DNA from: a virus
Length of the DNA: 37,104 nucleotides
Direction: 5' to 3' (one strand)
IMG/VR virus record: IMGVR_UViG_3300045988_090832
Span: 1-37,104 of that record
The position numbers and the translations under genes were made by a program. Position 1 is the stretch's first letter, and each line of letters starts with the position of its first letter. The notes under the pieces were generated by a model. The model saw only the letters and a list, made by a program, of their open reading frames with translations, did no database searches and was not told the origin of the DNA. Of the stretch, positions 9,401-35,277 are shown piece after piece.

Positions 9401-10483
9401 GGACTGAGCAAGAGCGACGCTATGCAGTCGATCCTTGACGGTTACAAGAACCTTTCCGACACGCAGAAGGACGCGCTTTTTGGCGTGTACAGCGACAGTG
9501 CGTCCGGCAATGCGTTCCATATCTCCAAGTATGAGGAGGCTATTAAGGACAATTCGTTCTACTCTTGCCTCAAGGACGCAGGCAAGAAGGAGCTGCGCTC
9601 ACTGCTCAACAGCTACGAGAAACATGTGGCGGATAACGCCAAGCTGGACGACTGGGAGGCCAAGGCGGCCGTTGCCAAGGAGGCCGGTATTTCGCCGGGC
9701 ATTTACGCGTTGTTCCAGGTCGCGCTGCAGGAGGCGGACACGGACGGCAAGGGATTGAGCCAGGCAAAGGCCAAGGCGGCCGTTGAGTCGGTCGGCGGTC
9801 TGACACAGGCACAGAAAGCGTATTTGTGGCAGAGCGCAAACAAGAGTTGGAAAAAGAACCCCTACGGCTCGGCGACGGTTTCCGAGTATAAGTATGCAGG
9901 CGGCGAGTTTGCAAACCCGGTTGCGGGCGGCACGATCTCCAGCAAGTTTGGTCCGCGTGACACGTTCGCGACAAGCAACGGTGCCTCGTCCTCGCGCTGG
10001 CACAAGTCGATCGACATTGCCGCGCCTGCCGGTACGGCGATTAAGTCGGTTCAGGGCGGCAAGGTAACCGCAAACGGCTGGGTCTCCGGTTACGGTTGGA
10101 CGATCGAGGTTACGCATGATAACGGCTATGTGAGCATGTACCACCACATGCAGAATCAGAGCAGTGTTGCGGTCGGCACGGAAGTAAAACAGGGGCAGAC
10201 GATCGGCAATGTCGGCAGCACCGGCAATTCGACCGGTCCGCACCTCGATCTGACGATCACCAAGGACGGCACGCCGGTGGATCCTGCGTCGCTGATTGGC
10301 GATTACAAGAACGCAAAGACGGGGTATGTTTACGAGGGTTCGCCGGTTTATACGCAGCTGTCCTCGGCGGCAAGCAAGAGCAAAAAGAGTTCCGGCGGGT
10401 CGAGTAGGTCGAGTGGCGGAAGCAGTTCCGGCGGTTTGAAGCAGCTTAAGGGACTTAGTGGTTTGAAAGGATTGGGATTCTGA
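3473..10483 (+). CDS. Giant 2336-aa multidomain protein with C-terminal M23 peptidase (candidate polyvalent, ejection or tail-associated lysin protein)
   Basis: Uninterrupted ORF with RBS TAGGAGG. Has Q-rich N-terminal repeats, long coiled-coil stretches and Gly-rich hydrophobic segments (e.g. GNAPVMAASAIPGVGPAVGSLVMGAQAAG, AAGGAFGGLVFGTAGAVG). The C-terminus carries an M23 domain and a G/S-rich tail. Confidence 0.9.
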   Translation: MSFYSDYEKKKNKNKTSALLKVPQVVPQKPAKQDNSRRATAARNGEQQRVQAHQNAHRPASTYLTGGSTTRSQPYAASQQRNTVFQQRGNTRQGFPGTGSRSTQQNNLRQPASTYLTGGSVTRSQPYAASQQNQLFSARKAAEQRRNPRQNVSTANKSSGVGNPTLTQFLKNSMDWHTTSDPNRKAQLHAQNDALRRKLGYDYNPQTGASFDKYGHEMTAGVRMAYGSKPTERLNQATKLLHTSGVMGKTDKATVYPTAMQAAQGLDEDYFSGQTGYNAHKTMHDLFNRSDETWSSEDTQSRDRARQELSDEMSRIMKRYGLTYQPRDNADDIMNRLKAAGADENTLAYVQENIDLRHAADRLGNSMEAVGKRWIASLPSLVDTSRQVSANVEESRQNEEYRQLEEQEQTLELTLQGMNSTTADGSVPADYQAVYDQLQEVRKRKNELTVNKGVDPNKWSQRMLREANEAQANAEAGLAPAPRWLTEQGISLAGNAPVMAASAIPGVGPAVGSLVMGAQAAGQRSFELNERGIGARESLTRGLTSGAIEAATERLPLGQMSKILHSGGVNAVKNILIQMGEEATEESASYFLNYVADKAAQDPDAKFSLQELAQSAAGGAFGGLVFGTAGAVGSRAATDTERMNAADAYDYNQVQQLVQLDSELQAALKLPEGPIRERAVQTAQDKMVNALTDMQRQNAARSAELTANYDADLQNHLDLQEKAETAQYLQEQENRALNQRAAVQAMQQMDTQTQNNVIDLQDRLNNAWTELQEIDQGDGRLSVAEMQRRNQLMDEIRQLNAQLNEQGVKTGAVMPEIQQNDMIRTADRGNVGEVLNQNPDGSYNAFFRNNETGEEGIHRVEAENAQRIAEPGTYEVASEQQRAAAAEEALSPSLDDSEYQFVQNQKEQAKPLGNYEMYGKTPKQAAQELQEQLNSQHSFVYESDEQAARREQNSELRGQFELAQPVRRQMEKFKNNHPLSDKDNSLLQGALLNGATDKFSQADDPAAVMHMYQLTQEEQRLMQPLREYAQARRDALSLSAEEMADAIAEKAKDKRIPGAYSRETMERNSYDIFGKENRQYAETLNEQYFTPVHKAVADRTQYINTVKDRIAKLNLSKHESALVQMMLEGENGAAADYIAAKKIKVTSKLQERVANGVAEFRAIYDDMYNKLCDTLIANGMWDSVPGYLKDYAPHFTVDKPDTKLARVLYKFGIKPDSTLNLPTPIAGITDDRNPGKKWFGNLLHRNGELTEFDAVAGFDRYVETAGDVIYLTDSIQNLRTLEDAIRYRLSDDGTRQKINEIRKDRTLDPLERHQQTQDVYDKNVDDTKKLLDQKHAGMGGYVANLHEYINNLAGKKARADRGWEEMLGRQMYNVAKNVEGRVAANMIALNPGSWITNFIPLTQAAGEVSTPNLLRAAYDTVKSAIRDDGFTDGSVFLTNREGTQMLDRTLTRKVSDLAGMPMEAIDHFTANIVTRGKYLQNIADGMTVNQAFENADAFASNLMADRSKGAQPTAFNAVNPIRKMFTMFQLEVNNQLSYLAKDLPRAKQNKAALAWSYTKIFAGAYLFNQVYHQLTGRDSALDPIGMIVDAFGLDDDDDKDKKKKSGVDIALDLGENIAEQIPFVGGLLGGGRVPISSAFPDFGKLKEEYENGYDNKRIALDAAKSAANSAAYLLLPFGGGAVKKALEGAATVYAGGSYSLDKNGEKILQFPTYGQSPRDWAQAMLFGKSSLQGAQEWADDDYQSLNADETKAFDELRQHMNWFKDENGNTIDNSEAVFAAIKAMRAITDEMKEKYPDDYTAIAAGKKREMLFNDNDLNEIQKKYLDRELIGSSVGASGDYSSRDMFDISQKVREARQDDAMEALKHGISVDEFANWDGIIEETLADNEVDAKDFVEGQNNELYKKNEALLAILNEYGNSGEHTDAEKNAFADYLLISAMEDSDKERWDEVKGTVNATDFVKFASDMTTYNKEYKGSGLSKSDAMQSILDGYKNLSDTQKDALFGVYSDSASGNAFHISKYEEAIKDNSFYSCLKDAGKKELRSLLNSYEKHVADNAKLDDWEAKAAVAKEAGISPGIYALFQVALQEADTDGKGLSQAKAKAAVESVGGLTQAQKAYLWQSANKSWKKNPYGSATVSEYKYAGGEFANPVAGGTISSKFGPRDTFATSNGASSSRWHKSIDIAAPAGTAIKSVQGGKVTANGWVSGYGWTIEVTHDNGYVSMYHHMQNQSSVAVGTEVKQGQTIGNVGSTGNSTGPHLDLTITKDGTPVDPASLIGDYKNAKTGYVYEGSPVYTQLSSAASKSKKSSGGSSRSSGGSSSGGLKQLKGLSGLKGLGF
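3647..3868 (+). repeat. Two 66-nt direct repeats (3647..3712 and 3803..3868) inside the giant gene
   Basis: CCTGCAAGCAC(T/C)TATCTGACCGGCGGCAGC(AC/GT)GACAAGAAGTCAGCCGTATGCGGC...CAGCAG appears twice, 156 nt apart. It encodes PASTYLTGGS(T/V)TRSQPYAASQQ twice. Confidence 0.9.
9914..10293 (+). other. M23 (LytM/lysostaphin-type) peptidase domain of the giant protein
   Basis: NPVAGGTISSKFGPRD...WHKSIDIAAPAGTAI (HxxxD)...GYGWTIEVTHDNGYVSMYHHM...GQTIGNVGSTGNSTGPHLDLTI. The usual HxH is H-L-D here, so one metal-site histidine appears replaced by Asp. Confidence 0.85.
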
Positions 10484-10534: not shown

Positions 10535-10586
10535 AAACCTATAACATTTTATGCTTTGACAGCAATAACTTAAATGTTAGAGGTTT
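10535..10586. other. Candidate attP for the large serine integrase (52-bp imperfect dyad)
   Basis: AAACCTATAACATTT (10535..10549) and its inverted copy AAATGTTAGAGGTTT (10572..10586) match at 14 of 15 positions. They flank 22 bp and overlap the int stop codon. Size and outer-arm symmetry resemble known serine-integrase attP sites. Not verified. Confidence 0.35.
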
Positions 10587-12114
10587 GAGGTATAGCAATT
10601 TTGGGGTGGATTGTCAGATGGAGGTCGCTTTTGGCTTTGCCGTAGACACGGACGGTTTTATGGTAGTCTATACGGCGGATTACCTGCTTTAAGAGAAGAT
10701 TTTGTTCTTTTGGATCTTCCAGTGTAGGGTATACGTCCAGCACATGACGGATGAGTGGCGCGGAGTTCTTCTGCGCTTCAATGTCTGTCTGTTTATTATG
10801 GAGTTTGCGCTCGATCTCGTGCTTTGTGTTTAGCAGTGCGGTCTGATCCTGGCTGATTGCGGATTGACGCTGCAGAAAGGTTTCCTTACTGTAAACACCA
10901 TCTTCGAGCAGTTCATAGGTACGCTGCAGACGGCGGTTTATATCGGTAAGCTGCTTCTCGATATTCTGCAGTGCGATTTCTTCGCTTTTCGTGTCCAGAA
11001 GGGCAGGAGAGCTGAGTTCGATCTCGTGAAGAAATTCGCGGAGAGACTGCAGGACAAGGCTTTCCACATCTTCAAACAGACTGGAGACGGTAGAGCAGGA
11101 CGGATTTTCACAGCCAAACCGGACTTTATCTTCACGGCGGTATGGATGGCGAGACATCAGTTTACCGCATTGGTCGCAGTAGACCAGTCCGGCCAGCGGA
11201 TTCATCTGCTGGTATTTGCGCGGTACACGCGGCGTAACGGTGTCTTTCATGCGCTGTTGGACGCTGTACCAGACGTCCCGCGGGATGATCGCTTCGTGTA
11301 TTCCTTCGTACAGCTCACAGTTTTTATTGACCGGTCGCTTGGTTATCAATTTGCCTTTTTGCACGATTTTTGTGTTGACCTTCATGGCACTGGGGATAAA
11401 ACCGGCATAGTGCGGGTTCTGCAGGATGGCACGGGTAGTCGCGGGCACCCATTTTTTATCGAGCGGTGTGCGGATCTTCATAGCGTTCAATTCGTTTGCG
11501 ATTTCGGAAAAGCCTTTGCCGGAAAGATACATATCGTAGATGGTGCGGATCACACCGGCCTGCGGCTCAACCGGTCGAAGGGACCAGCCACGGCCGTCCA
11601 GTTTGTAGCGTTCATAGCCGTAAGGCGGACGTCCGGGAACGTAGTGGCCTTCTTTCTTGGAGGCTCTCGTTCCGGCCAGCTGACGGCGGCGTATCATTCT
11701 ATACTCCTGGCGCGACATGAACAGGCCGAACTCCATCCACTCCTCATCCGCCTCCTGCGTGGGGTCGTAGGTTTTGGACGGCGTGACGATCAGTGTGCCC
11801 GAAAACTTAAACGCTTGGGCGACGATACCCTGATCTATGGTATCGCCGCGCGCAAGACGCGAGGTTTCGGTTACGAGGACGCCCTTCCAGCGGCCATCCT
11901 CCACCTCGGAGAGAAGCTGCTGCATGACGGGACGGTTCGCAATGCGCTCACCGGAGACGATCTCACGGTATATCGCGCCGATCGGCAGGGCGCGGGACTT
12001 GGCAAGCTCCATGAGGATATGCTCGTGCCGGGCGAGGGTATCGCCTTCGCCGTGGGCCTCGGCTTCGAGGTCGGCACGGGATTTGCGTAAATAGATGGCA
12101 TACTCGGTGGACAT
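10570..12114 (-). CDS. int: Large serine recombinase (phage integrase)
   Basis: N-terminal resolvase catalytic domain (YAIYLRKSRAD...GDTL..., VTETSRLARGD). Followed by a recombinase domain (PPYGYER...) and a zinc-ribbon region (CDQCGKLMSRH...FGCENPSC) with a coiled-coil tail. Start taken at MSTEY (ATG 12114), preceded by GGAAGTGA. Confidence 0.9.
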   Translation of the reverse strand: MSTEYAIYLRKSRADLEAEAHGEGDTLARHEHILMELAKSRALPIGAIYREIVSGERIANRPVMQQLLSEVEDGRWKGVLVTETSRLARGDTIDQGIVAQAFKFSGTLIVTPSKTYDPTQEADEEWMEFGLFMSRQEYRMIRRRQLAGTRASKKEGHYVPGRPPYGYERYKLDGRGWSLRPVEPQAGVIRTIYDMYLSGKGFSEIANELNAMKIRTPLDKKWVPATTRAILQNPHYAGFIPSAMKVNTKIVQKGKLITKRPVNKNCELYEGIHEAIIPRDVWYSVQQRMKDTVTPRVPRKYQQMNPLAGLVYCDQCGKLMSRHPYRREDKVRFGCENPSCSTVSSLFEDVESLVLQSLREFLHEIELSSPALLDTKSEEIALQNIEKQLTDINRRLQRTYELLEDGVYSKETFLQRQSAISQDQTALLNTKHEIERKLHNKQTDIEAQKNSAPLIRHVLDVYPTLEDPKEQNLLLKQVIRRIDYHKTVRVYGKAKSDLHLTIHPKIAIPQTSNI

Positions 12115-12118
12115 TTTA

Positions 12119-12235
12119 TCACTTCCATTTATTATTCCAGTTATTCCGATCATGGGTGACATGGATAATCACCCAGACTACAAGCAAGGCGATACAGAGC
12201 AAGCCGGTGAGGGTTTCTTTGACAAATGGCGTCAT
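12119..12235 (-). CDS. 38-aa single-TM peptide (hand-called; below the ORF-track cutoff)
   Basis: Minus strand reads GGAGGAATAATT-ATG, giving MTPFVKETLTGLLCIALLVVWVIIHVTHDRNNWNNKWK-stop. Good SD and a hydrophobic core. The stop is 4 nt before the int ATG. Confidence 0.4.
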   Translation of the reverse strand: MTPFVKETLTGLLCIALLVVWVIIHVTHDRNNWNNKWK

Positions 12236-20807: not shown

Positions 20808-21602
20808 ATGTTATATCAAAAACAGGAGTGCAACGGTGCGCTCTATCAGATGTGTTTATATTCCATGGGCACGATGCCGGGCATGTCGCCCAGGCAGAGG
20901 GCGGGCAGACGGCGGACAACCGAGAAGGCCAAGCAGGAGATCAACCGGCGACAGCGCAAGTGGCGGCTGATGCAGCTGATCAACGCCAATTTTGTGAGCG
21001 GTCGGGATCTGTTTGTTTGCTTGACGTATGCGCCGGAGGCGTCCAGAGCGCGGGCTTTGGAGAAATTCCATGCGAAGATGAAAAAGGCGTATGCAAAGAT
21101 TGGCCTTAAATACAAGTACATAGCAGTAACAGAGGAGCACGACATGGACGGTGAGCCGGTGCGGCTGCATCACCACCTGATCCTCAGCGGTGCGGCCGAT
21201 GTGCGGCTGGCCGAGGTGGTGCGTGAGTGCTGGCCGAATGGTCTGGCCGATGTGCGGACTCTGCGCGAGGGCGCGGACTTTTTTGAGGACACCGCCATCT
21301 ATCTGCTCAAGGAGGACAGCCACAAGGGCAAGGGCGCCCGCCGGTACTCCACCAGCCGCAATCTGACCCCGCCTGCAGAGCCGGTTCGGCTTAGACTGGG
21401 CGAGGAGGAGGAGGCCGAAGTGCCGCCCGGCGTGAAAATCATCGAGCATGTACAGAATGCGAACGAGTTCGGCCGCTATGAGGTTATGGTCGGCCGCATT
21501 TACAACCAGGCGGCGTTTAGCGCGTGGTGGGCGGCACAGCGGCGCAAGGCTGCTCCCGATCCGTGGGAACGGCTGCGCAGGAGACGGCAAAGAAAAGTTT
21601 AA
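20808..21602 (+). CDS. rep: HUH-type rolling-circle replication initiator (Rep)
   Basis: Three motifs appear in the canonical order: FVCLTY (motif 1), RLHHHLIL (HUH, motif 2) and TAIYLLKE (catalytic Y..K, motif 3). The N- and C-termini are basic. Confidence 0.65.
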   Translation: MLYQKQECNGALYQMCLYSMGTMPGMSPRQRAGRRRTTEKAKQEINRRQRKWRLMQLINANFVSGRDLFVCLTYAPEASRARALEKFHAKMKKAYAKIGLKYKYIAVTEEHDMDGEPVRLHHHLILSGAADVRLAEVVRECWPNGLADVRTLREGADFFEDTAIYLLKEDSHKGKGARRYSTSRNLTPPAEPVRLRLGEEEEAEVPPGVKIIEHVQNANEFGRYEVMVGRIYNQAAFSAWWAAQRRKAAPDPWERLRRRRQRKV

Positions 21603-23071: not shown

Positions 23072-23614
23072 ATGCAGCAGCGCGGGAGTAAGTATGACCA
23101 GAAAATCAAAGACGAGGCGCTGGCACTGATTGCGTCCGGCGTGAAAATCTCCAATGCGTCGGTGCGGCTCGGAATCCCCAAGAGCACGTTATCGGATTGG
23201 GTACATACCCAGAACGAGAGCGACGAGGACGGTGTGGCTGCACGGCGGGAGATACGCCGCAAGCAGATTGCACGGTGCGAGAAGATCGGGGACAAGGTGC
23301 TCCGGGCGCTCGACCGCAAGGCTGAGGCCGCTGCGAAGGACACCCGGACCATCAATGACGGTCTGGCAGTGCTTGAAAAAGCGGCCAAGGACGGCGTGAT
23401 CGCGCTGAGTGAGGCCGAGGTGGCAAGTCTAAGAAACGTTGTAAGCGATTACACCGGCGTCGGCCTGCGCGAGCTGGCCGGAACCATGAAGGATGTTGCG
23501 GCAAGACAGGAAACGCTGGAGTCCCATCTGGCTGAGAAGGAAGAAGCGGCTCCGGAGATCAACCTGCAGCTGACGCTTGTTGATCCGACAAAGGCGGTTA
23601 GCGATGAATCTTGA
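23072..23614 (+). CDS. terS: Terminase small subunit (HTH N-terminus)
   Basis: Lies immediately upstream of TerL and overlaps it. N-terminal HTH-like segment (IKDEALALIASGVKISNASVRLGIPKSTLSDWV) followed by a helical oligomerisation-like region. GGAGG lies 7 nt before ATG 23072. Confidence 0.6.
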   Translation: MQQRGSKYDQKIKDEALALIASGVKISNASVRLGIPKSTLSDWVHTQNESDEDGVAARREIRRKQIARCEKIGDKVLRALDRKAEAAAKDTRTINDGLAVLEKAAKDGVIALSEAEVASLRNVVSDYTGVGLRELAGTMKDVAARQETLESHLAEKEEAAPEINLQLTLVDPTKAVSDES

Positions 23615-24929
23615 TTTTCAGATCACGCCGAAACAGCAGCTGTTTATGGACACGGATGCTTTCGAGGTTCTTTACGGCGGTGCAGCCGGCGGCGGCAAGA
23701 CGTTTATTCAGGCGCTGGACGCTCTTGTATACGCGCTGCGGTATCAGGGCAGTAGGCAACTAATCCTCAGACGCACGTTTAAGGAACTCGAACGCTCCAT
23801 GGTGCCGCAGACGATGGAGTTGTACCCCGCCAGTGTGGCAAGCTACAACACAAGTAAACACATTTGGAAGGTTGGCAAATCAACCATTGAGATGGGATAC
23901 ATTGCAACCGAGGGCGATGTGCAGCAGTACCAGTCCGCCGAGTATGACGTGATCCGGTTCGACGAGATGACGCATTTCACCGAGAGCATGTACACCTACA
24001 TGATCTCTCGTGTGCGTGGCACGCGGCCGTTTCCGAGACACGTCAAATCGACCGCTAACCCCGGCAGCGTGGGACATACCAACGCCAAGAGCCGGTTTAT
24101 CGACATTGGCGCTCCGATGGAGGTGCACCGCTGCGAGGGCGGCACGCGACTGTTTATTCCGGCAAAGCTGGAGGACAACCCGTTTCTGCTGACCAAAGAC
24201 CCGCAATACGAGGAACGTATGAAAAACCTGCCGCGCGAAATTTACATTGCGCTGCGTGAAGGCAACTGGGATTACTACGTTGGCCAGTATTTCACCGAGT
24301 TCAAGCGGGAGCTGCACGTTGTTCGTCCGTTTGAGATTCCGGCATGGTGGAGACGGTATGTTGCGATCGACTACGGCCTCGACATGCTGGCGGCGTACTG
24401 GATCGCGGTGGATGAGAACGATTATGCGGTGGTTTACCGTGAGGTTTACCAGCCTGACCTTATCATTCCGGAGGCGGCCAAGCGACTGCTGAACGCAAAC
24501 TGTAATGACGATATCACGGCATGGTTCGCGCCAAAAGACCTGTGGAACAGGCGGCAGGAGACCGGCAAGAGCGTATCCGACTTGTTTGCGGAGTACGGTC
24601 TGTATCTCTCCAAGGTGAGCAACGGCCGTGTGGCCGGATGGTACGAGCTCAAGCGCCGGCTGCAGCCTGTGCCCGATGTGGATGGTACACTCAGACCGAA
24701 ATTGCAGATTTTTGATACCTGCTTGAATCTCATTCGCACACTGCCGGGCTTGCAGCACGACGAGAAGAACCCTAACGATACGGCAACCGAGCCGCACGAG
24801 CTGACGCACGGACCGGACGCGATCCGGTATTTCTGCGATGGATGCCCGCTGCCTGCGGAACTGCCGAGAGTAAGAGACGAGGATTATCTATCAACTGAGG
24901 AGGAAATGGGAAATGTATTTAGCTATTAG
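23604..24929 (+). CDS. terL: Terminase large subunit
   Basis: Walker A LYGGAAGGGKTF. Walker B/coupling ...YDVIRFDEMTHF. C-terminal nuclease-like region (VAIDYGLDMLAAYW...HGPDAIRYF). Confidence 0.9.
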   Translation: MNLDFQITPKQQLFMDTDAFEVLYGGAAGGGKTFIQALDALVYALRYQGSRQLILRRTFKELERSMVPQTMELYPASVASYNTSKHIWKVGKSTIEMGYIATEGDVQQYQSAEYDVIRFDEMTHFTESMYTYMISRVRGTRPFPRHVKSTANPGSVGHTNAKSRFIDIGAPMEVHRCEGGTRLFIPAKLEDNPFLLTKDPQYEERMKNLPREIYIALREGNWDYYVGQYFTEFKRELHVVRPFEIPAWWRRYVAIDYGLDMLAAYWIAVDENDYAVVYREVYQPDLIIPEAAKRLLNANCNDDITAWFAPKDLWNRRQETGKSVSDLFAEYGLYLSKVSNGRVAGWYELKRRLQPVPDVDGTLRPKLQIFDTCLNLIRTLPGLQHDEKNPNDTATEPHELTHGPDAIRYFCDGCPLPAELPRVRDEDYLSTEEEMGNVFSY

Positions 24930-25473
24930 TGTCGTTGCGGTGATGTGTGCTTTTCTGGCTGCTGTGCAGACCCGAAACGCCAAGCGCTTGGGCGCGGATT
25001 TGCGGCAAAAAACCGTGGAAGCGGAATCCTTTCAGCTGACTGCGCGGACGATGGAGGAACGCCTGCACACTGAGGAGGCGGCGCGCATGCAGCTTGCGGA
25101 CCGCATTACCAAGGTGGAGACCGCCCTGCGAGAGAGTGAGGACACGGCCTGCCGTCTGCGGCAGGAGCTGCAGACCGAGCGCAGGAAGTACAAGGATCTG
25201 CAGGCAGAACTCGACTCCACCAAGGATGCACACGACGCGGCAATCAGCGCGATGTGGAGCGCCCGCAACGAGGTTGATAATCTGGGGCAGGAGAACGGTA
25301 AGCTGACCGAGGCGCTGAACACCGAGCGGGAGACCGCAAAGCACTGGAAAGAGGAATTCAACAAGGAACAGGCGTACCGCCTGAGCACCGAGGGCCGCAT
25401 TATGCGCGAAGTCAACAATCTACTCCGCTATGACGGCACCGCCCACGGGCAGGAGGATTTGAGCGATGAATGA
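24913..25473 (+). CDS. N-terminally anchored coiled-coil protein (186 aa)
   Basis: TM segment LAISVVAVMCAFLAAV, then about 150 aa of heptad-like E/R/K/L-rich sequence. Overlaps TerL by 17 nt and the portal gene by 8 nt. Confidence 0.6.
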   Translation: MYLAISVVAVMCAFLAAVQTRNAKRLGADLRQKTVEAESFQLTARTMEERLHTEEAARMQLADRITKVETALRESEDTACRLRQELQTERRKYKDLQAELDSTKDAHDAAISAMWSARNEVDNLGQENGKLTEALNTERETAKHWKEEFNKEQAYRLSTEGRIMREVNNLLRYDGTAHGQEDLSDE

Positions 25474-27064
25474 GCAAAAAATCACGCTCACGGCTGACAG
25501 GGTGCAAGCCGAGTACGAAAAAGGTGTGCAGTACAACACCGGTATCGGGCTGTACGAGAACGTAAAACAGTGCGAGAACTTTGTGGAAGGGAAGCAGTGG
25601 GAAGGACTCAAGAGTAAGAACCTGCGGCCGATCACGATGAACGTTCTCGACCCTATCGTACATTACAAGGTGGCACAGATCGTCTCGAACGATGTGGATC
25701 AGGAAGTTGAACCGTTTCTGCCTGATGAACAGGCAGAGTTTGCGGCGAAAATCCTTGAGCAGAGCATTGATCGCGTAGTCGAGAGGACGAAGATCAAGAG
25801 CATGCACCACATGGTCCTGCGCGACGCCTGCGTAGATGGTGACGCGGCGCTGTATTTTTACTTTGACGCAAGCAAGCAGTCCGGTTTGGGCGGTGTGCAG
25901 GGAGAAATCTCTGCCGAACAGGTCATGAACACGAACATTTTGTTCGGAAATCCGTCTAATGCGAACGTGCAGGAGCAGCCGTACCTTATCATTGTGCGGC
26001 GCAGACCGGTTTCTGAAATCCGCAAGGACGCGAAGCGGCTCGGCTGCAAGGAATGGGAGACCATTGAGGGCGAGTCGGATGGATTGTACAAAGGCGATGA
26101 CGAGCAGAATAACAGCGACAGTCTCGGCAACGAGCTTGTGCGGTTCTGGAAGTCCGAGGACGGCAGGGTACATTACTGCCGCTCCTGCGGGCGCGTGATG
26201 ATCGAGCAGGATGTTGCGACGGAAATGACACTCTATCCCGTCGCGTACATGAGCTGGAAGCCGAGAAAGAACTGCTATCACGGCGTGATGGAGATCAAAC
26301 CGCTCATCAACACGCAGATTGAGATCAACAAGCAGTGGACGGCGCTTGCGCTCATGCTGCGGAATAATGCGATGCCGAAATTGGTATACAACCGCAATAA
26401 GTTCCCCAAGGGCTGGGACCCGGATGCGACTTCTATCGGCGTGACCGGCGACGTGAAGGACGCGCTTACCGGCGTTGCAGGCTCGATGCCGATTCCGACC
26501 GAGGCCACAGGCATTACGTCCACCATGACGGACGCGCTCAAGAGTGTAGCCGGCGCGAACGATGCCGCACTCGGCAACGTGAAGAACCCGGAGAACAGCA
26601 GTGCGATCGTAGCGGTACAGACCGCGAACGCCGCGCCACTCGCGCTGACCAAGATCGCCTATTATCAATTTGTCGAGGACTACGAGCGGGTGTTGATCGA
26701 CATGATGCACGCCTATTACGGGATGCGGCAGGTCAAGATCACGGACGAGGCGACAGACCCGGAAACCGGTGACACGCAGGAGCAGACCCGCGTGGAGATG
26801 TTCGACTTCTCCACGCTGCCGGTCGAGGCCCTCGACCTAAACATCCATATCGGCGAGGCAAGCTACTGGTCGAGGATTCTGCAGGTATCCACGCTTAATA
26901 ATCTGCAGACGGCAGGCGTTATGCCCAATATGGTTGAGTTCCTTTCTCGTATGCCGGAAGGCTCGGTTAAGGATCAGGAGGGACTTGTGGAGGCTGCAAA
27001 GCGTGTGCAGCAGCAGGCCAGCATGCAGCAGGCATTACAGCAGGGAGGTTTAACGAATGGATAA
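25466..27064 (+). CDS. Portal protein
   Basis: 532-aa ORF directly after the terminase genes and before the scaffold and capsid genes. The call rests mainly on position and size, with no motif I can name. Confidence 0.7.
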   Translation: MNEQKITLTADRVQAEYEKGVQYNTGIGLYENVKQCENFVEGKQWEGLKSKNLRPITMNVLDPIVHYKVAQIVSNDVDQEVEPFLPDEQAEFAAKILEQSIDRVVERTKIKSMHHMVLRDACVDGDAALYFYFDASKQSGLGGVQGEISAEQVMNTNILFGNPSNANVQEQPYLIIVRRRPVSEIRKDAKRLGCKEWETIEGESDGLYKGDDEQNNSDSLGNELVRFWKSEDGRVHYCRSCGRVMIEQDVATEMTLYPVAYMSWKPRKNCYHGVMEIKPLINTQIEINKQWTALALMLRNNAMPKLVYNRNKFPKGWDPDATSIGVTGDVKDALTGVAGSMPIPTEATGITSTMTDALKSVAGANDAALGNVKNPENSSAIVAVQTANAAPLALTKIAYYQFVEDYERVLIDMMHAYYGMRQVKITDEATDPETGDTQEQTRVEMFDFSTLPVEALDLNIHIGEASYWSRILQVSTLNNLQTAGVMPNMVEFLSRMPEGSVKDQEGLVEAAKRVQQQASMQQALQQGGLTNG

Positions 27065-27281
27065 CACGAATGAGAGCAAGGCGGAGCGCTTTGTAAGGTT
27101 GGCAGAGCCGCGCGTTTCGCGTGCGTGCAAGGCGATCAGCCTGATCGGCCATCTGGCGGCAAGCTCGTATGAGTACACCGATAAGCAGGTTGAAAGCATG
27201 TTTGCGGCGCTTCAGGATGAGCTGAACACACAGAAGGCGAAGTTCACCAAGAAGGGAACGGACAGACCGTTCCGGTTTTGA
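27057..27281 (+). CDS. Hypothetical small protein (74 aa)
   Basis: ATG overlaps the portal stop by 8 nt. MDNTNESKAERFVRLAEPRVSRACKAISLIGHLAASSYEYTDKQVESMF... Confidence 0.5.
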   Translation: MDNTNESKAERFVRLAEPRVSRACKAISLIGHLAASSYEYTDKQVESMFAALQDELNTQKAKFTKKGTDRPFRF

Positions 27282-27293
27282 GGGAGGTACGGC

Positions 27294-27599
27294 ATGAAAA
27301 AGTTATTTATTTCTCAGCCGATGAAGGACAAGACCAACGATGAGATTGAACGCGCGCGTGAGCGTGCTATCCGCGAAGCGACTGAATATATCGGTGAGCC
27401 TGTCGAAATCATCGACTCCTTTTTTAAGGATGCACCGCACGACGCAAAGCCACTTTGGTTCCTGGCTGAGTCTATCCGGCTTATGGCAGATGCGGATCTC
27501 GTTTATTTCGCCAAGGGTTGGAAGGACGCACGCGGCTGCATGATCGAGCGCGAATGTGCTGTGCAGTACGGCGTTCCGATTCTCGAACCTGATTATTGA
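27294..27599 (+). CDS. Nucleoside 2-deoxyribosyltransferase-fold protein (DUF4406-like)
   Basis: MKKLFISQPMKDKTNDEI...ADLVYFAKGWKDARGCMIERECAVQYGVPIL follows the M.k.yIs.PM.g......aD.v....gW..s.Gc..E...A...G.pv pattern of this fold family. RBS GGAGG. Confidence 0.45.
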   Translation: MKKLFISQPMKDKTNDEIERARERAIREATEYIGEPVEIIDSFFKDAPHDAKPLWFLAESIRLMADADLVYFAKGWKDARGCMIERECAVQYGVPILEPDY

Positions 27600-27606
27600 T
27601 TTTTCT

Positions 27607-27860
27607 GTTCCGGCGTTCGGACGGGCGGGAGCTGACCTCACCCGCCCCATTGATTCCCCTTATTTCTTTCTGATGGCGGGCACCCTCGTTCGGGTCGAGG
27701 GCGTCCGTCCGAGCGCCGGAACACGATATTTTCCTGCACTGCGGCGGGCGTGGGATTCTCGCCATATTATCCCGCGTCCGGGTTACGCATTCCCCGTGCG
27801 TGCAAGGATACAAGCGGGTGCAGTACCAGCGGAACGGTGCTGCGTCCGCCGGAGTGCAGG
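27607..27860 (+). ncRNA. Candidate structured RNA, two domains and seven helices (family unassigned)
   Basis: A 322-nt gap without a credible ORF in a tightly packed operon. H1 is 27607-27624/27705-27722 (18 bp). H2 is 27624-27629/27641-27646. H3 is 27683-27688/27696-27701 with loop TTCGGGT. H4 is 27733-27747/27846-27860 (14 of 15). H5 is 27749-27755/27770-27776. H6 is 27785-27789/27797-27801. H7 is 27820-27827/27836-27843. The non-Watson-Crick pairs in H1, H5 and H7 are all T.G on the + strand, which would be A.C on the minus strand. Confidence 0.5.
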
Positions 27861-27921
27861 AACGCACGATAAACACACGGCAATGAGACGCAAGTCTTTT
27901 GCATATAGGAGGATTGTCTAA

Positions 27922-28914
27922 ATGGATTGGAAAACCAGCAATCATATGGACGGAAGTGAGATCCGTGACAGTATCGATTTACAGTATTTTGCCGAGGACG
28001 GCAATACATCCGACACCGGCGCGGACATGGACGGCTTTGACGAGAGCGAATTTCTCGCCGCCCTCGAAGGCAGTGACGCGGAAAACCAGCGCGGCACGAA
28101 CGAGGGAAACGAGGAAAACGTGCAGGACGGTGCGGAAGACCAGCGCGCCGAAGAGCAGCCCGAGGAGCCGGAGAATCAGCCGCCAGAGGGCGGCGAAGTA
28201 CCGCCTGAGACGGTGGAACAGCTGGTGCAGACCGTGCCGCTCGTCTACAACGGACAGCAGATTATGCTGCCTGCAGATGCAGTACAGGCGCTGACCGGTG
28301 CGCTCGGTGCGAACCCGGTCGAATTGCTCCAGAAGGGCATGAATTATGACCGCAAGGCCGAGCGGGAAATGCGCGTACTGGATCAGTACGCCGAGGCCGC
28401 TGGCATGAACCGGCAGCAGTATCTGGAACAGCTGGAGGGCGCACGCAATGAGCAGCTGCTTTCGGCAGAAATTGAGAAGTGTCGCGCAGAGTTTCCGGAA
28501 ACCCCGGATGCGGCGCTTAAAGCAATCGCCGAGGGCCGCATGGCTTCCCAGCGTGCAGCCGCGGCACAGGCCGCCGAACAGCAGCGCGCACAGCTTACCG
28601 CCATGCAGCAGAGAATTGATCAGACCGTTGCACAGGCACGGCAGGAGGCCAATGAAAAGGCTTGGGACGAATACGAGGTACTCGCAGGCGTTCACAAACC
28701 GGAGGACATTCCACCGAGAGTGATGGAGCTTGTGCAGACTGAGGGCATGACCCCGACGGCTGCGCACTGGCGTTACCAGTCTGAGCTTGCACAGCAGCAG
28801 GTCCAGATCGAGAAGAAGAACAACATGAACAAACAGATGAGCCCCGGCTCCATGGGTGGAGCGGGCGAAGAAGCCGGATTTGACGCGGATTTTAAGCGTG
28901 CATTCGGCTATTGA
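27922..28914 (+). CDS. Scaffolding protein
   Basis: Highly acidic N-terminus and a Q/A/E-rich helical body. Lies directly upstream of the major capsid gene. RBS TAGGAGGA. Confidence 0.65.
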   Translation: MDWKTSNHMDGSEIRDSIDLQYFAEDGNTSDTGADMDGFDESEFLAALEGSDAENQRGTNEGNEENVQDGAEDQRAEEQPEEPENQPPEGGEVPPETVEQLVQTVPLVYNGQQIMLPADAVQALTGALGANPVELLQKGMNYDRKAEREMRVLDQYAEAAGMNRQQYLEQLEGARNEQLLSAEIEKCRAEFPETPDAALKAIAEGRMASQRAAAAQAAEQQRAQLTAMQQRIDQTVAQARQEANEKAWDEYEVLAGVHKPEDIPPRVMELVQTEGMTPTAAHWRYQSELAQQQVQIEKKNNMNKQMSPGSMGGAGEEAGFDADFKRAFGY

Positions 28915-28931: not shown

Positions 28932-30002
28932 ATGCCTACTGATTTCCATGATGGTCATAATCTTGCCAGCAAATTTGCGGGCAGCTTTGAAAAGCAGTGG
29001 AACGCGCAGTCTTACGTTAAGCCGCACACCAACGGCAACCTGAATTTTGACGGCGTGGACACCCTCGAAGTGTATGTACCGACCACTGTGCCGTACCATG
29101 AGTTTGACCGCGATGCGGCGGCAAACCGCTACGGTGACCCGAAGAACATCATCCCGAATTCCCACCGTTACCGTATGATGATGGACATGGCATATACCGG
29201 TGTCATCGAGCTTGGCTCCGCCAAGAGCCGCACGATCGGCACCGCAACCGGAGAGTGGATCAAGAATGAGAACGAGTCTGAAGTGATCCCGTATGAGGAC
29301 CGCTATGCGCTCAAGAAGTTTGCAAACCTCGGCACGATCAAGGAGGCAGGCTCGCTGACAGGCGACACCGCGCTTGCAGCGCTCGAAAATGCACGCCGCG
29401 AGTTTGTAAACAAGCGCGTACCTAACAGCAACCGTGTTGTCTGGGCATCTCCTGAGTTTGTCGGTCTGATCGCCGAGAGCAAGCAGTTCACGGAAATTGA
29501 GAAGCTGACCGTGGATGCTGTACGCATGGGTGAGCTCGGTCAGTGCAAGACCTTCCGTATTATTGAGGTTCCCGAGGATATCATGCCGACAGGCGTGCAT
29601 TTCCTCGCCGCACACCAGTCCGCGCTTGTACAGGCGGACAAGCTGAATGAACTCAAGATCCATAGCAATCCGCAGGGCTATTCTGGTCCGCTGATCGAGG
29701 CGCGCAACCTGTTTGACGCCTTTGTAATCGGCTCTCTGGCTAAGGGCGTATACTCCCTGGTCGAGACCGGTAAAAAGCAGGCGTGCTCTGTCAAGATCGC
29801 GTCGCACACTGCAACGATCACCGCAGCAGGCGCAAGCGAGATCAAGTATACGCTGGACGGCTCGGACCCGCGTTTCTCCGCAAAGGCGAAGTCCGTGGTA
29901 AACGGCTCGGTAACTACTACCGCAGGCCAGACCATCAAGGTTGTTGCTTTCGGTCCGGACGGCACCTTTACCTCGGATGTGGCTGAGGCTACCGACAACT
30001 AA
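28932..30002 (+). CDS. Major capsid protein with C-terminal Ig-like (chitobiase/Fn3-associated-type) domain
   Basis: Follows the scaffold gene and is followed by a strong terminator, a typical arrangement for a highly expressed gene. The C-terminal ...ITAAGASEIKYTLDGSDPRFSAKAKSVVNGSVTTTAGQTIKVVAFGPDGTFTSDV matches the I.YT.DGSDP...tikv.a.. motif of CHB_HEX_C/Fn3-associated domains. Confidence 0.75.
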   Translation: MPTDFHDGHNLASKFAGSFEKQWNAQSYVKPHTNGNLNFDGVDTLEVYVPTTVPYHEFDRDAAANRYGDPKNIIPNSHRYRMMMDMAYTGVIELGSAKSRTIGTATGEWIKNENESEVIPYEDRYALKKFANLGTIKEAGSLTGDTALAALENARREFVNKRVPNSNRVVWASPEFVGLIAESKQFTEIEKLTVDAVRMGELGQCKTFRIIEVPEDIMPTGVHFLAAHQSALVQADKLNELKIHSNPQGYSGPLIEARNLFDAFVIGSLAKGVYSLVETGKKQACSVKIASHTATITAAGASEIKYTLDGSDPRFSAKAKSVVNGSVTTTAGQTIKVVAFGPDGTFTSDVAEATDN

Positions 30003-35096: not shown

Positions 35097-35103
35097 GCAA
35101 GGA

Positions 35104-35259
35104 CGTATTAACATTCTAAGGCGTACCACTTGACCGTTTGCAGGTGTTTTTACCCACTGTTTTCGGCAAGCGGTACGACTGAATGCTTAAAATGTGCATA
35201 AAATACCGGTTCAAACTGAGCTGTAGCGGCTTGTTCGTGCGCATTAGAATGTTAATGCG
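35104..35259. repeat. 20-bp inverted repeat pair (35104..35123 / 35240..35259) downstream of both convergent fibre C-termini
   Basis: CGTATTAACATTCTAAGGCG versus the reverse complement of CGCATTAGAATGTTAATGCG matches at 18 of 20 positions. Each copy lies 8-20 nt after the stop of one C-terminal cassette. Confidence 0.7.
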
Positions 35260-35277
35260 TAGCTGAGAGCTGCTATT

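Follow-up and report, generated by a model that had tools for sequence, protein, structure and literature searches.

Tandem structured RNA modules upstream of the putative scaffold gene in phages of gut Clostridia

The gap 5' of the putative scaffold gene in the phage studied here consists of two tandem paralogous copies of one structured RNA module, with a unit of roughly 125 bases. The window (the whole stretch of DNA analysed, 37,104 nt of the IMG/VR record IMGVR_UViG_3300045988_090832) contains only these two copies, as judged by pattern and covariance-model scans. From the sequence comparisons, the module family appears to be previously undescribed; its carriers are temperate phages of gut Clostridia. 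An earlier note on this DNA had proposed a structured RNA of 254 nt in the gap. The candidate is real, non-coding, of + sense and conserved, but a single 254-nt RNA is excluded, because the gap holds two paralogous modules with variable copy number elsewhere, and the element is not specific to a scaffold leader. With a probability of about 0.4, we favour the view that the modules are intercistronic RNase III-type processing or stability elements, which would uncouple the scaffold-capsid mRNA and may release small RNAs of roughly 100 nt.

Position of the array among the late genes

The genes on either side of the array are co-oriented, on the + strand:

27294..27599, + strand: upstream accessory gene, 101 aa, DUF4406 / nucleoside 2-deoxyribosyltransferase-like (PHROG phrog_355, 9.8e-17; weak Pfam DUF4406 match)
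27863..27921, + strand: leader of the putative scaffold gene, with an 11-nt unit, a small GCAA-loop hairpin and a Shine-Dalgarno (SD) sequence
27922-28914, + strand: putative scaffold gene, acidic product, no family match (assigned from position and composition only)
28932-30002, + strand: major capsid protein gene (PHROG major head protein, 5.7e-23)

The upstream gene stops at TGA 27597-27599, 4-6 nt 5' of module 1. Its slot is variable, and at least seven unrelated sequences abut the 5' edge of module 1 in relatives. On the other side, the last base of domain 2 is 27862 and the ATG of the scaffold gene stands at 27922, in agreement with the spacing given in the earlier note. The leader carries the 11-nt unit CACGATAAACA at 27865-27875 with a partial second copy to 27880 (1-3 copies in relatives). 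The scaffold SD, AGGAGG at 27907-27912, follows the array by ~45 nt and is largely unpaired in the MFE fold; the length of its partner region varies among relatives.

Neither a terminator nor a sigma-70-type promoter was matched within 26800-28200, this being the promoter type covered. No intrinsic terminator (a G+C-rich hairpin plus U run) was found in 27600-27925, where the nearest T run lies 6-8 nt past the helix. The phage encodes a classical TerL (Terminase_6N/3) together with a P22-like portal, and the window contains a single recombinase, of the serine type. No protein more than 30% identical to the capsid protein was found among 50,697 deposited phage genomes, and a search of the same genomes for similar DNA returned no match. 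On the contig IMGVR_UViG_3300029537_000177 (L007/L041), by contrast with those genomes, the capsid protein shares 98% identity with that of the window.

Fold and strand of the two modules

The elements of the two modules are as follows:

27604..27726, + strand: module 1 (type A), from MFE fold, inverted repeat and covariance-model match
27604-27627 with 27702-27726, + strand: module 1 closing helix P1, 24 bp in the MFE fold with one bulge
27641..27680, + strand: module 1 inner helix P3, CCCGCC 27641-27646 with GGCGGG 27675-27680, from the MFE fold
27654-27671, + strand: pyrimidine-rich tract TTCCCCTTATTTCTTTCT, enclosed by module 1 P3
27683..27701, + strand: module 1 hairpin P4, CCCTCG, loop TTCGGGT, CGAGGG, with compensatory variants in relatives
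27727..27730, + strand: linker between the modules, in the T-rich run 27724-27732 (ACGATATTTTCC context)
27731..27862, + strand: module 2 (type B), from fold, inverted repeat, covariance model R1 and pair counts
27731-27740 and 27742-27749 with 27844-27851 and 27853-27862, + strand: module 2 closing helix P1
27750..27775, + strand: module 2 hairpin P2, 27750-27756 with 27769-27775, conserved loop TCTCGCCATATT
27776..27819, + strand: module 2 helix P3, 27776-27780 with 27815-27819, supported in the domain 2 pair counts
27785-27789 with 27797-27801, + strand: module 2 hairpin P3a, inside P3, supported in the domain 2 pair counts
27802-27811, + strand: conserved purine motif GCAAGGATAC, inside module 2 P3
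27820..27843, + strand: module 2 hairpin P4, 27820-27827 with 27836-27843, loop AGCGGAAC containing the conserved CGGAA

The helices lie where they had first been described and are longer than had been noted, forming inverted repeats of 22 nt (27606-27627 with 27702-27723, 91% complementary) and 20 nt (27731-27750 with 27843-27862, 90% complementary) that rank second and fourth among the long-range inverted repeats of the 37-kb window. On the + strand, the segment 27600-27925 folds at -157.4 kcal/mol compared with -120.8 +/- 5.3 kcal/mol for shuffled sequences (z = -6.96; 0/100 shuffles equally good). The MFE fold reproduces the two closed domains of the earlier description: three hairpins in domain 2 and two in domain 1, which has a small stem besides. 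The - strand reaches -133.1 kcal/mol (z = -3.5), 24 kcal/mol less stable than the + strand. The argument for a + sense RNA had also been made from T.G pairs, and these wobbles are real. The module 1 P1 carries the family core GACGGGCG/CGTCCGTC and the wobble G27625.T27704; the P1 of module 2 has 18 bp, one mismatch (the central G27741/G27852) and the wobble G27748.T27845. These two wobbles occupy the equivalent position in the two closing helices, and the G.U wobble common to both domains marks the + strand.

The arms of modules 1 and 2 are 70-82% identical, and their interiors share nothing. The covariance model R1, built from domain 2, matches domain 1 at 27607-27721 with 41 bits. Module 2 itself scores 158.5 bits on the + strand versus 42.5 bits on the - strand.

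We consider it highly implausible that a small protein is encoded in the gap or that the fold arises by chance in G+C-rich DNA. ORFs of 115-154 aa do span the gap on both strands, and on the - strand of module 1, as in the third module of relatives, an SD-like sequence is followed by an ATG. However, none of the four long ORFs has a Pfam match, their translations are Arg/Cys/Pro-rich, and 1-nt indels together with whole-module indels in close relatives break every frame. The short - strand ORF becomes Met-Gly-Gly-stop through a 1-nt deletion in three relatives (L007, L003 and L004) and lacks its ATG in another (L006). The earlier view that the gap has no credible ORF thus holds, and the conserved small protein that would have spoken against the RNA candidate was not found. 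Chance is ruled out by the fold z-score, covariation and conservation.

Covariation and conserved parts of the module

Pair counts show compensatory changes both in the closing helix (22 module lineages) and in domain 2 (30 sequences). In the closing helix, double changes occur at 13/21 pairs and 92.4% of alignment cells are paired, a percentage that is partly built in, as module collection required at least nine outer pairs. None of 500 shuffles was equally good, and sliding the partner strand leaves only 35-45% paired. The helix has 20-24 bp in every lineage and spans 20-21 paired positions across the 22; the G.U wobble is retained in 19 of them, and the central G/G mismatch is present in 13.

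For domain 2, double changes were found at 15/43 pairs, with 96.8% of cells paired and 0/500 shuffles matching, and pair counts support all five helices. These figures come from small alignments; that of domain 2 was fitted to the structure with a covariance model, because MAFFT alone misaligns module interiors. Five of the seven P2 pairs change on both sides around an invariant GCCATA, and P4 has double changes at three pairs, with G.U alternating with G-C. Across 111 distinct modules, the + strand is favoured in 95 (mean 7.1 kcal/mol), and the number of G.U pairs per module is 3.9 on the + strand versus 1.45 on the - strand.

Module 1 P4 keeps its stem by compensation as well, being CCCAG-TATCGGG-CTGGG in one relative (L032) and CCCAGT-GTTGG-ACTGGG in another (L087). 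Its TTCGGGT loop, which had been likened to a T-loop, is not conserved (TATCGGG or GTTGG in these relatives), and T-loop mimicry by module 1 was rejected on this ground. Likewise rejected was a structural switch that would pair the 5' core with a complementary stretch close by in place of the 3' arm (local complementarity 6.5 versus 6.1 in shuffled interiors); alternative switch folds exist ~8 kcal/mol above the MFE fold.

The pyrimidine tract and possible trans action

A pyrimidine tract (at least 11/12 bases) is present in 76 of the 111 distinct modules and the equivalent purine tract in none. In the MFE folds the tract sits in a loop or junction. Since Staphylococcus Rsa sRNAs work via C-rich loops aimed at SD sequences, one could read the modules as genes of trans-acting sRNAs, whose excised, anti-SD-like C/U-rich loop would pair with host or phage ribosome-binding sites or titrate a factor. 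Some lineages indeed have long exact matches to the Firmicute 16S rRNA 3' tail (CTCCTTTCTA in the third module, P = 0.007; TCCTTTCT and ACCTCCT elsewhere). However, the match is significant in few lineages only; module 1 of the window matches the tail by only 6 nt (P = 0.24), and type B modules, module 2 included, lack the tract altogether. Moreover, any C/U tract complements any SD over 4-6 nt, and pyrimidine-rich unpaired regions may merely avoid spurious ribosome binding. We regard it as unlikely that the modules are genes of trans-acting sRNAs.

A bolder version, which we hold to be very improbable, is that the excised small RNAs imitate the 16S rRNA 3' end and serve as decoys or sponges. 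The C/U loop would play the anti-SD and the CGGAA loop would resemble that of helix 45, while the first 10 bases of one closing-helix strand would correspond to the decoding-site strand CCGCCCGUCA. Such RNAs might sequester ribosome-binding sites or draw away a host toxin cleaving the anti-SD. As a whole, mimicry of 16S rRNA found no support, the best local alignments to E. coli 16S rRNA (24 lineages) falling within the shuffle range, although it may apply to some lineages. Separately, some phages pair their modules with a tRNA-like gene of Ser type, with anticodon GCU, UCU or CUU.

Distribution of the family and mosaic junctions

We collected ~35 distinct arrays from IMG/VR human-gut metagenomes and from one prophage (L159, with its array at 5774-6035; contig NZ_JNJN01000002.1) of Agathobaculum desmolans ATCC 43058, the sole cultured host with an array. 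Modules are 105-150 nt long, and an array has two or three of them, the number varying among near-identical phages. The linker at 27727..27730 is the point at which relatives carry a third module and a tRNA-like gene. The latter lies inside the array in eight arrays and can also separate the modules from the scaffold gene. In other phages modules precede the terminase large subunit gene, a 306-aa ORF or a small Cys-rich ORF and stop 5-15 nt short of the next gene's SD; L016-type phages have several copies per genome, which bracket accessory genes.

At the scaffold junction the array is missing in two relatives, one of which (L008) has an intrinsic terminator there and the other (L183) a divergent gene. 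In both, the junction is hence a boundary between expression units. The absence of the array from some relatives implies that the modules are accessory and, together with the variable copy number, that no single module is essential. In these comparisons, the modules mark mosaic junctions.

Such behaviour could also be expected of DNA. If the modules acted chiefly at the DNA level, as selfish repeats of the MITE, BOX or ERIC kind or as recombination linkers, the RNA fold would be a by-product of the inverted repeats. The arms of 22 and 20 nt do resemble terminal inverted repeats, whole modules are present or absent among near-identical genomes, copies bracket accessory genes in the L016-type phages, and the junction with the various unrelated upstream sequences falls precisely on the 5' edge of module 1. 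On the other hand, intragenomic copies share the helix core only, and their unrelated interiors keep the helices via compensatory changes. G.U alternates with G-C, consistently on the + strand, which argues for selection at the level of RNA, or at least of a single strand. Every copy is co-oriented with the genes. The insertion of the third module (L004 versus the window) shows no target-site duplication, only CGGA microhomology between module ends. Nor are there many near-identical copies per genome, as in MITE, BOX or ERIC families; the window has two. Finally, a scan of 185,579 species representatives for the type B pattern gave 49 hits, of which only L159, inside a prophage, was inspected; the other 48, in high-G+C genomes of unrelated phyla, are taken as chance matches, which leaves a single genome with the pattern. 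A primarily DNA-level role therefore seems improbable to us. The modules were also compared with integron attC sites and rejected as such: their ends, TTCCGGCG...CGCCGGAA, are unlike RYYYAAC ... GTTRRRY, and no IntI was found, only the serine recombinase.

Comparison with leader, packaging and other known RNAs

Rfam 15 gave no hits on the whole window at the gathering threshold. At E <= 10, the segment 27400-28100 matched only MIR1514 (18.6 bits, threshold 90) and a CRISPR repeat (15.7 bits, threshold 45), neither of them a real match, and the related arrays gave only tRNA and a weak sbcD match. The element had been said to match no family by eye, and these searches bear that out. No tRNA or tmRNA was found in the window by ARAGORN or Rfam, the tRNA-like gene being confined to related arrays. 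Fremin et al. 2023 (PMC10690425) catalogued 10,006 candidate viral structured RNAs, and the present element may be among them.

The location of the array directly 5' of the most highly expressed late genes suggests a cis-acting leader of the scaffold and capsid genes, which might be a riboswitch, a protein-binding translational operator or an antitermination RNA of the put/EAR type. Conserved loops and an invariant inner helix would suit a specific ligand or protein, and the Bacillus EAR element is likewise placed inside an operon. However, Rfam found no relative even at E <= 10, no terminator is available as an expression platform, and the SD lies well past the array and unsequestered. Modules precede terminase and unrelated genes elsewhere, come in two or three copies, may have the tRNA-like gene between them and the scaffold gene, and are missing from that junction in L183 and L008. 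We think a cis-acting regulatory leader unlikely. The riboswitch or leader role suggested in the earlier note finds neither a terminator, nor conserved SD sequestration, nor a fixed downstream gene, and a riboswitch is not supported, as both an expression platform and a constant downstream gene class are missing. Its other suggestion of a packaging RNA does not fit the classical TerL and P22-like portal; a phi29-type pRNA has no Rfam match here, and the packaging system is not of the phi29 type.

The put (HK022) and EAR (Bacillus) RNAs resemble the modules as structured RNAs of ~70-120 nt within long operons, acting there in cis. Unlike the modules, they have no 20-24 bp closing helix and a constant copy number, and no similarity was detected; nor were terminators identified downstream of the array. 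Species 1 and 2 of the T4 tRNA cluster, GOLLD and ROOL are also phage-encoded structured non-coding RNAs beside tRNA genes, and are made during lytic growth. The modules have no Rfam match to GOLLD or ROOL, are much smaller and arrayed, and lie inside a structural-gene operon.

A proposed role as processing or stability elements between cistrons

Among the roles proposed earlier, a processing site that uncouples scaffold and capsid expression is the best anatomical fit; the function itself is what we infer. The modules would be transcribed on the + strand within a long late operon, each as a closing helix with an invariant inner core and G.U wobble that encloses two or three hairpins, and would serve as post-transcriptional intercistronic punctuation. 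RNase III needs a helix of about 20-24 bp, and P1 of the modules is a near-perfect helix of ~20 bp or more. These two-turn closing helices may be cut by the host RNase III or, failing that, impede exonucleases. The scaffold-capsid message would in this way be split from the variable upstream genes, with stability set part by part, and a cut in the closing helix could free the inner ~90-110 nt as stable small RNAs.

Helices of about two turns between co-transcribed genes are known from the R-sites of T7, the sites of Bacillus phage SP82 and the rRNA processing stalks. As with the T7 and SP82 RNase III signals, the modules recur at several gene boundaries per genome with a shared sequence core; as in rRNA operons, tRNA genes (here a tRNA-like gene, in some arrays) would belong to the same processed unit. 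The expected effect is also the same, namely uncoupling and differential stability within one transcript. However, in T7 and SP82 the signal is a simple hairpin of ~40-60 nt, whereas the modules, at 105-150 nt, are longer and hold conserved loops as well as two or three conserved inner hairpins. None of the T7, SP82 or rRNA signals has sequence similarity to the modules, whose cleavage by RNase III is predicted.

Another set of relatives in form are pneumococcal BOX A-Bn-C, enterobacterial ERIC, Correia of Neisseria and REP/BIME elements, which are imperfect palindromes of ~100-150 bp in transcribed intergenic regions, vary in copy number in a modular way and fold in mRNA, altering its stability or processing. 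They differ from the modules in having many near-identical chromosomal copies; the modules have few copies, unrelated interiors and compensatory changes, and are confined to phage genomes in one orientation, with no target-site duplication seen.

Several observations bear on processing or stability elements as the preferred reading. The tRNA-like gene inside the array would fit a locus devoted to RNA processing, since rRNA operons and the T4 tRNA cluster are similar. By contrast, the conserved loops (GCCAUAU, GCAAGGAUAC, CGGAA), the pyrimidine tract and the invariant inner helix are superfluous in a plain processing stem and thus point to a specific partner. The central G/G mismatch might impede RNase III instead of directing it, and a module edge at a mosaic junction also fits a DNA-level role.

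In phage late operons, the output of scaffold and capsid protein must greatly exceed that of portal or terminase. To our knowledge, the control of scaffold and capsid versus portal and terminase output is essentially undescribed in phages of gut Clostridia. We contribute a covarying RNA family without a database match. The cultured, inducible host, Agathobaculum desmolans ATCC 43058, makes the question testable, and a natural set of variants exists with 0, 2 or 3 modules, with or without the tRNA-like gene. Should the modules be processing or stability signals, they would provide portable insulation of gene cassettes within one transcript, which would explain their siting at mosaic junctions. 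If they are trans-acting RNAs or protein-specific binders, they would represent a new class of phage regulatory RNA.

Fold of the gap and kinship of its two domains

The window derives from a temperate phage with podovirus-like head genes; its large serine recombinase is consistent with this lifestyle. The features bearing on the analysis are listed below.

Features of the window (coordinates, strand, description)
3473-10483, +, 2336-aa ORF whose sole recognisable domain is a C-terminal M23 peptidase; possibly a lytic protein, injected or virion-associated
10570-12162, -, large serine recombinase
20808-21602, +, rolling-circle Rep-like protein (REP_ORF2-G2P domain)
23577-24929, +, large terminase
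25466-27064, +, P22-like portal
27057-27281 and 27294-27599, +, two small ORFs
27597-27599 (TGA) to 27922 (ATG), gap
27865-27880, 11-nt unit CACGATAAACA between domain 2 and the scaffold SD; one to three tandem copies in relatives, replaced by a different short leader in the L005/L020 type
27922-28914, +, putative scaffold (acidic, 330 aa)
28932-30002, +, major capsid protein, followed by tail genes
35103-35126 with 35237-35260, longest long-range inverted repeat of the window (A+T-rich; its 24-nt arms are separated by 110 nt and 88% complementary); it lies in the interval from the last + strand tail gene to the first - strand gene and has no sequence relation to the domains

The earlier note had proposed that the gap forms two closed RNA domains, each held by a long-range helix. 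Both helices were found and are longer than claimed: the arms of domain 1 (27606-27627 with 27702-27723) span 22 nt and are 91% complementary, those of domain 2 (27731-27750 with 27843-27862) span 20 nt and are 90% complementary, and the two repeats rank second and fourth among the window's inverted repeats with arms at most 200 nt apart. The + strand RNA fold of 27600-27925 returns both domains (27604-27726 and 27731-27862) and the hairpins described inside them, at -157.4 kcal/mol versus -120.8 ± 5.3 for shuffles (z = -6.96); the - strand fold reaches -133.1 kcal/mol (z = -3.5). No terminator-like or sigma-70-type promoter-like site was found in or beside the gap.

The arms of the two domains share 70-82% identity, and both domains have the inner core 5'-G(A/G)CGGGCG ... 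CGUCCG(U/C)C-3', in which the last G of GGG lies opposite U (G27625.U27704 and G27748.U27845). Built from domain 2 sequences alone, a covariance model scores domain 1 at 41 bits, and outside the two domains it has no match in the window. The domains are copies of one unit; hereafter, modules like domain 1 are termed type A and those like domain 2 type B.

Covariation, strand and coding potential

Closing-helix pairs were counted in 22 module lineages, with the core anchoring their arms. Standard pairs fill 92.4% of cells versus 79.6% in shuffles; the observed percentage arises partly by construction because the collection filter demanded at least nine outer pairs; the variety of compensatory pairs is unaffected. 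Sliding the 3' partner by 1-3 columns leaves 35-45% paired. Both sides have changed at 13 of 21 pairs (e.g. GC/UA/AU at one position, UA/CG/GC at another). The wobble is G.U in 19 of the 22 lineages and GC or AU in the remainder, and one central position is mismatched in 13.

For domain 2, 30 distinct sequences were aligned with a covariance model on the curated structure. In this structure-fitted alignment pairing holds in 96.8% of cells, and double changes occur at 15 of 43 pairs, values attained by none of 500 shuffles. All five helices contain at least one compensatory pair, and several pairs alternate between G.U and G-C. Type A interiors were not alignable by MAFFT alone. The domain 1 hairpin that precedes the 3' arm, CCCUCG/CGAGGG in the window, reads CCCAG/CUGGG or CCCAGU/ACUGGG in close relatives; in L006, L095 and L021 (loci here are numbered L) its sequence is unrelated.

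The + strand fold is the stabler one in 95 of 111 distinct modules (by a mean of 7.1 kcal/mol) and holds 3.9 G.U pairs per module versus 1.45 on the - strand. A 12-nt stretch with at least 11 pyrimidines occurs in 76 of the 111 modules, its purine equivalent in none. Moreover, modules share the coding strand of their neighbouring genes in every context examined in full. Together, these asymmetries place selection on the + strand RNA. Single-stranded + strand DNA could in principle be the selected molecule instead; we see no reason to prefer it.

The gap was also said to lack a credible ORF. This holds: in close relatives, indels of one base within each domain (CACCCGCCCCATTG versus CACCCGCCCATTG; TATCCCGCGTCC versus TATCCCCGTCC) break its frames, and the long ORFs crossing it, with Arg-, Cys- and Pro-rich translations, have no Pfam match. 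Whole-module differences separate the window from close relatives as well. A - strand SD-like sequence with an ATG inside module 1 was rejected as a gene start, as it encodes Met-Gly-Gly-stop in L007, L003 and L004.

Relatives and modular composition of the array

The capsid protein retrieved eight IMG/VR loci, and two DNA patterns drawn from the domains retrieved many more. Both domains occur in 44 loci (35 distinct arrays), every one just upstream of the scaffold ATG. Among 15 human-gut metagenome contigs found via the capsid, a module scan detected modules in eight. Run over 185,579 species representatives, the type B pattern brought up one cultured genome, where it lies in a prophage; the host is Agathobaculum desmolans ATCC 43058 (Clostridia, Butyricicoccaceae). 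Deposited phage genomes contained neither similar DNA nor a capsid above 30% identity.

Two modules, the window's number, make up 12 of the 35 distinct arrays; 15 carry a third, type A module between these two, which exists as two unrelated versions, and eight also contain a 134-nt tRNA-like gene. L184 (capsid 63% identical) retains a type B module in shortened form, its end lying 8 nt ahead of the SD. Flanking sequence can exceed 95% identity between arrays that differ in module content. At least seven unrelated upstream sequences, with different accessory genes, abut module 1 within a few bases of its helix. Hence, the array sits at a mosaic junction beside a variable accessory-gene slot. 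The third-module insertion point shows no target-site duplication, only CGGA microhomology of module ends. The mosaicism speaks for, and the selection on + strand RNA against, modules being mainly a DNA-level repeat or recombination linker, which we consider unlikely.

Features in the window and related loci
Window 27597-27606, 5' edge of module 1 as mosaic breakpoint; equivalents in L002, L019, L021, L050, L087 and L118
L016 about 7700-10360, reverse strand, module cluster; also in L012, L045, L034 and L049
L087 1938-1968 and L016 10210-10245 (reverse strand), repeated short motif (G)TTTTAAGTAG TTTTAAGTAG TTACAAGTAG immediately ahead of a module, at two sites that otherwise differ in context
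L061 3901-4034 (+), L036 5120-5253 (-) and L080 7023-7156 (-), 134-nt tRNA-like gene; also in L016, L072, L025, L027, L076 and L078, absent from the window

Modules also occur elsewhere. In the L016/L045/L012 group, a 2.7-kb stretch upstream of the large terminase contains five modules and the tRNA-like gene. These elements flank a 48-aa Cys-rich ORF and a three-gene cassette (the L016-type cluster brackets 48-aa Cys-rich, 306-aa, 116-aa and MazG-like ORFs), and one module ends 5 nt before the next gene's SD. We take L045 (IMGVR_UViG_3300045988_048055) to be a phage other than the window's, since its L016-type array sequence is absent from the window; its length, 37,104 nt like the window's, seems coincidental. 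A single module follows a zinc-ribbon-like small ORF in L043, and one directly precedes the SD of a terminase-like gene in L095. These sites speak against a cis-regulatory leader, antitermination included, and the position before the scaffold ATG for one; we regard a leader as unlikely.

The tRNA-like gene scores 39-46 bits against Rfam tRNA, and ARAGORN makes no call on it. Acceptor, D, anticodon and T arms are normal; the variable arm is about 50 nt long with a conserved CCAGUCACCAA loop, and the anticodon (GCU, UCU or CUU) varies between close relatives. Since a long variable arm marks serine identity in bacteria, the gene could encode a Ser-type tRNA that switches anticodon.

Conserved unpaired features are also present. 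Type B modules keep GCCAUAU in the loop of inner helix P2, GCAAGGAUAC after P3a and CGGAA in the P4 loop; most type A modules combine a C/U-rich tract with UGGCGG ahead of their last hairpin. In some lineages 7-10 bases of this tract match the Firmicute 16S rRNA 3' tail, the third module reaching 10; module 1 of the window matches over 6 bases only, which is not significant. The longer matches speak for a role as trans-acting small RNAs, which seems unlikely, and the short one against it. A wider likeness to the 16S 3' domain, noticed by eye, scored no better than shuffles when aligned locally.

Proposed role

What the analysis shows is a modular non-coding structure on the + strand, conserved and covarying, that sits where genes meet within operons. 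We tentatively suggest that they act as post-transcriptional punctuation between genes (probability about 0.4), by a mechanism that we infer. Closing helices would be cut, or exonucleases arrested there, parting the scaffold-capsid message from the variable upstream genes and leaving stable structured RNAs of about 100 nt. Several observations favour punctuation. The sole feature common to all modules is a 20-24 bp helix kept by compensatory change, and such a helix has the size of an RNase III substrate and far exceeds the closing helices of ligand-binding RNAs in length. The genes on either side of the modules are co-oriented, the window's gap has no terminator or sigma-70-type promoter match, a stop codon or SD is often just a few bases away, and module number varies without apparent harm. 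Two relatives without an array have at the same junction a divergently oriented gene (L183, capsid 62% identical) or a strong intrinsic terminator (L008, capsid 36% identical) instead. Finally, a tRNA-like element, a classical processing signal, can belong to the array. The invariant inner helix with its wobble and the conserved loops are left unexplained by punctuation, which is why we hold it at this level; they suggest a specific protein or RNA partner. The helices, domains and fold of the earlier note stand, and its interpretation was right in part.

By working principle, the modules come closest to the T7 and SP82 RNase III signals and to rRNA-operon processing stalks; by genomic behaviour, to the modular intergenic repeats BOX, ERIC and Correia; by context, to the T4 tRNA cluster's unexplained stable RNAs and to GOLLD and ROOL, two phage-linked RNAs. 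They belong to none of these, every sequence-based membership test being negative, and they lack the target-site duplication and near-identical copies of MITEs. Overall, they are a real, previously uncharacterised structured-RNA family, which the large existing catalogue of unnamed candidate viral structured RNAs may list (PMC10690425), and the window carries a minimal array of two modules. With the Agathobaculum desmolans prophage, their function is now directly testable in a cultured lysogen.
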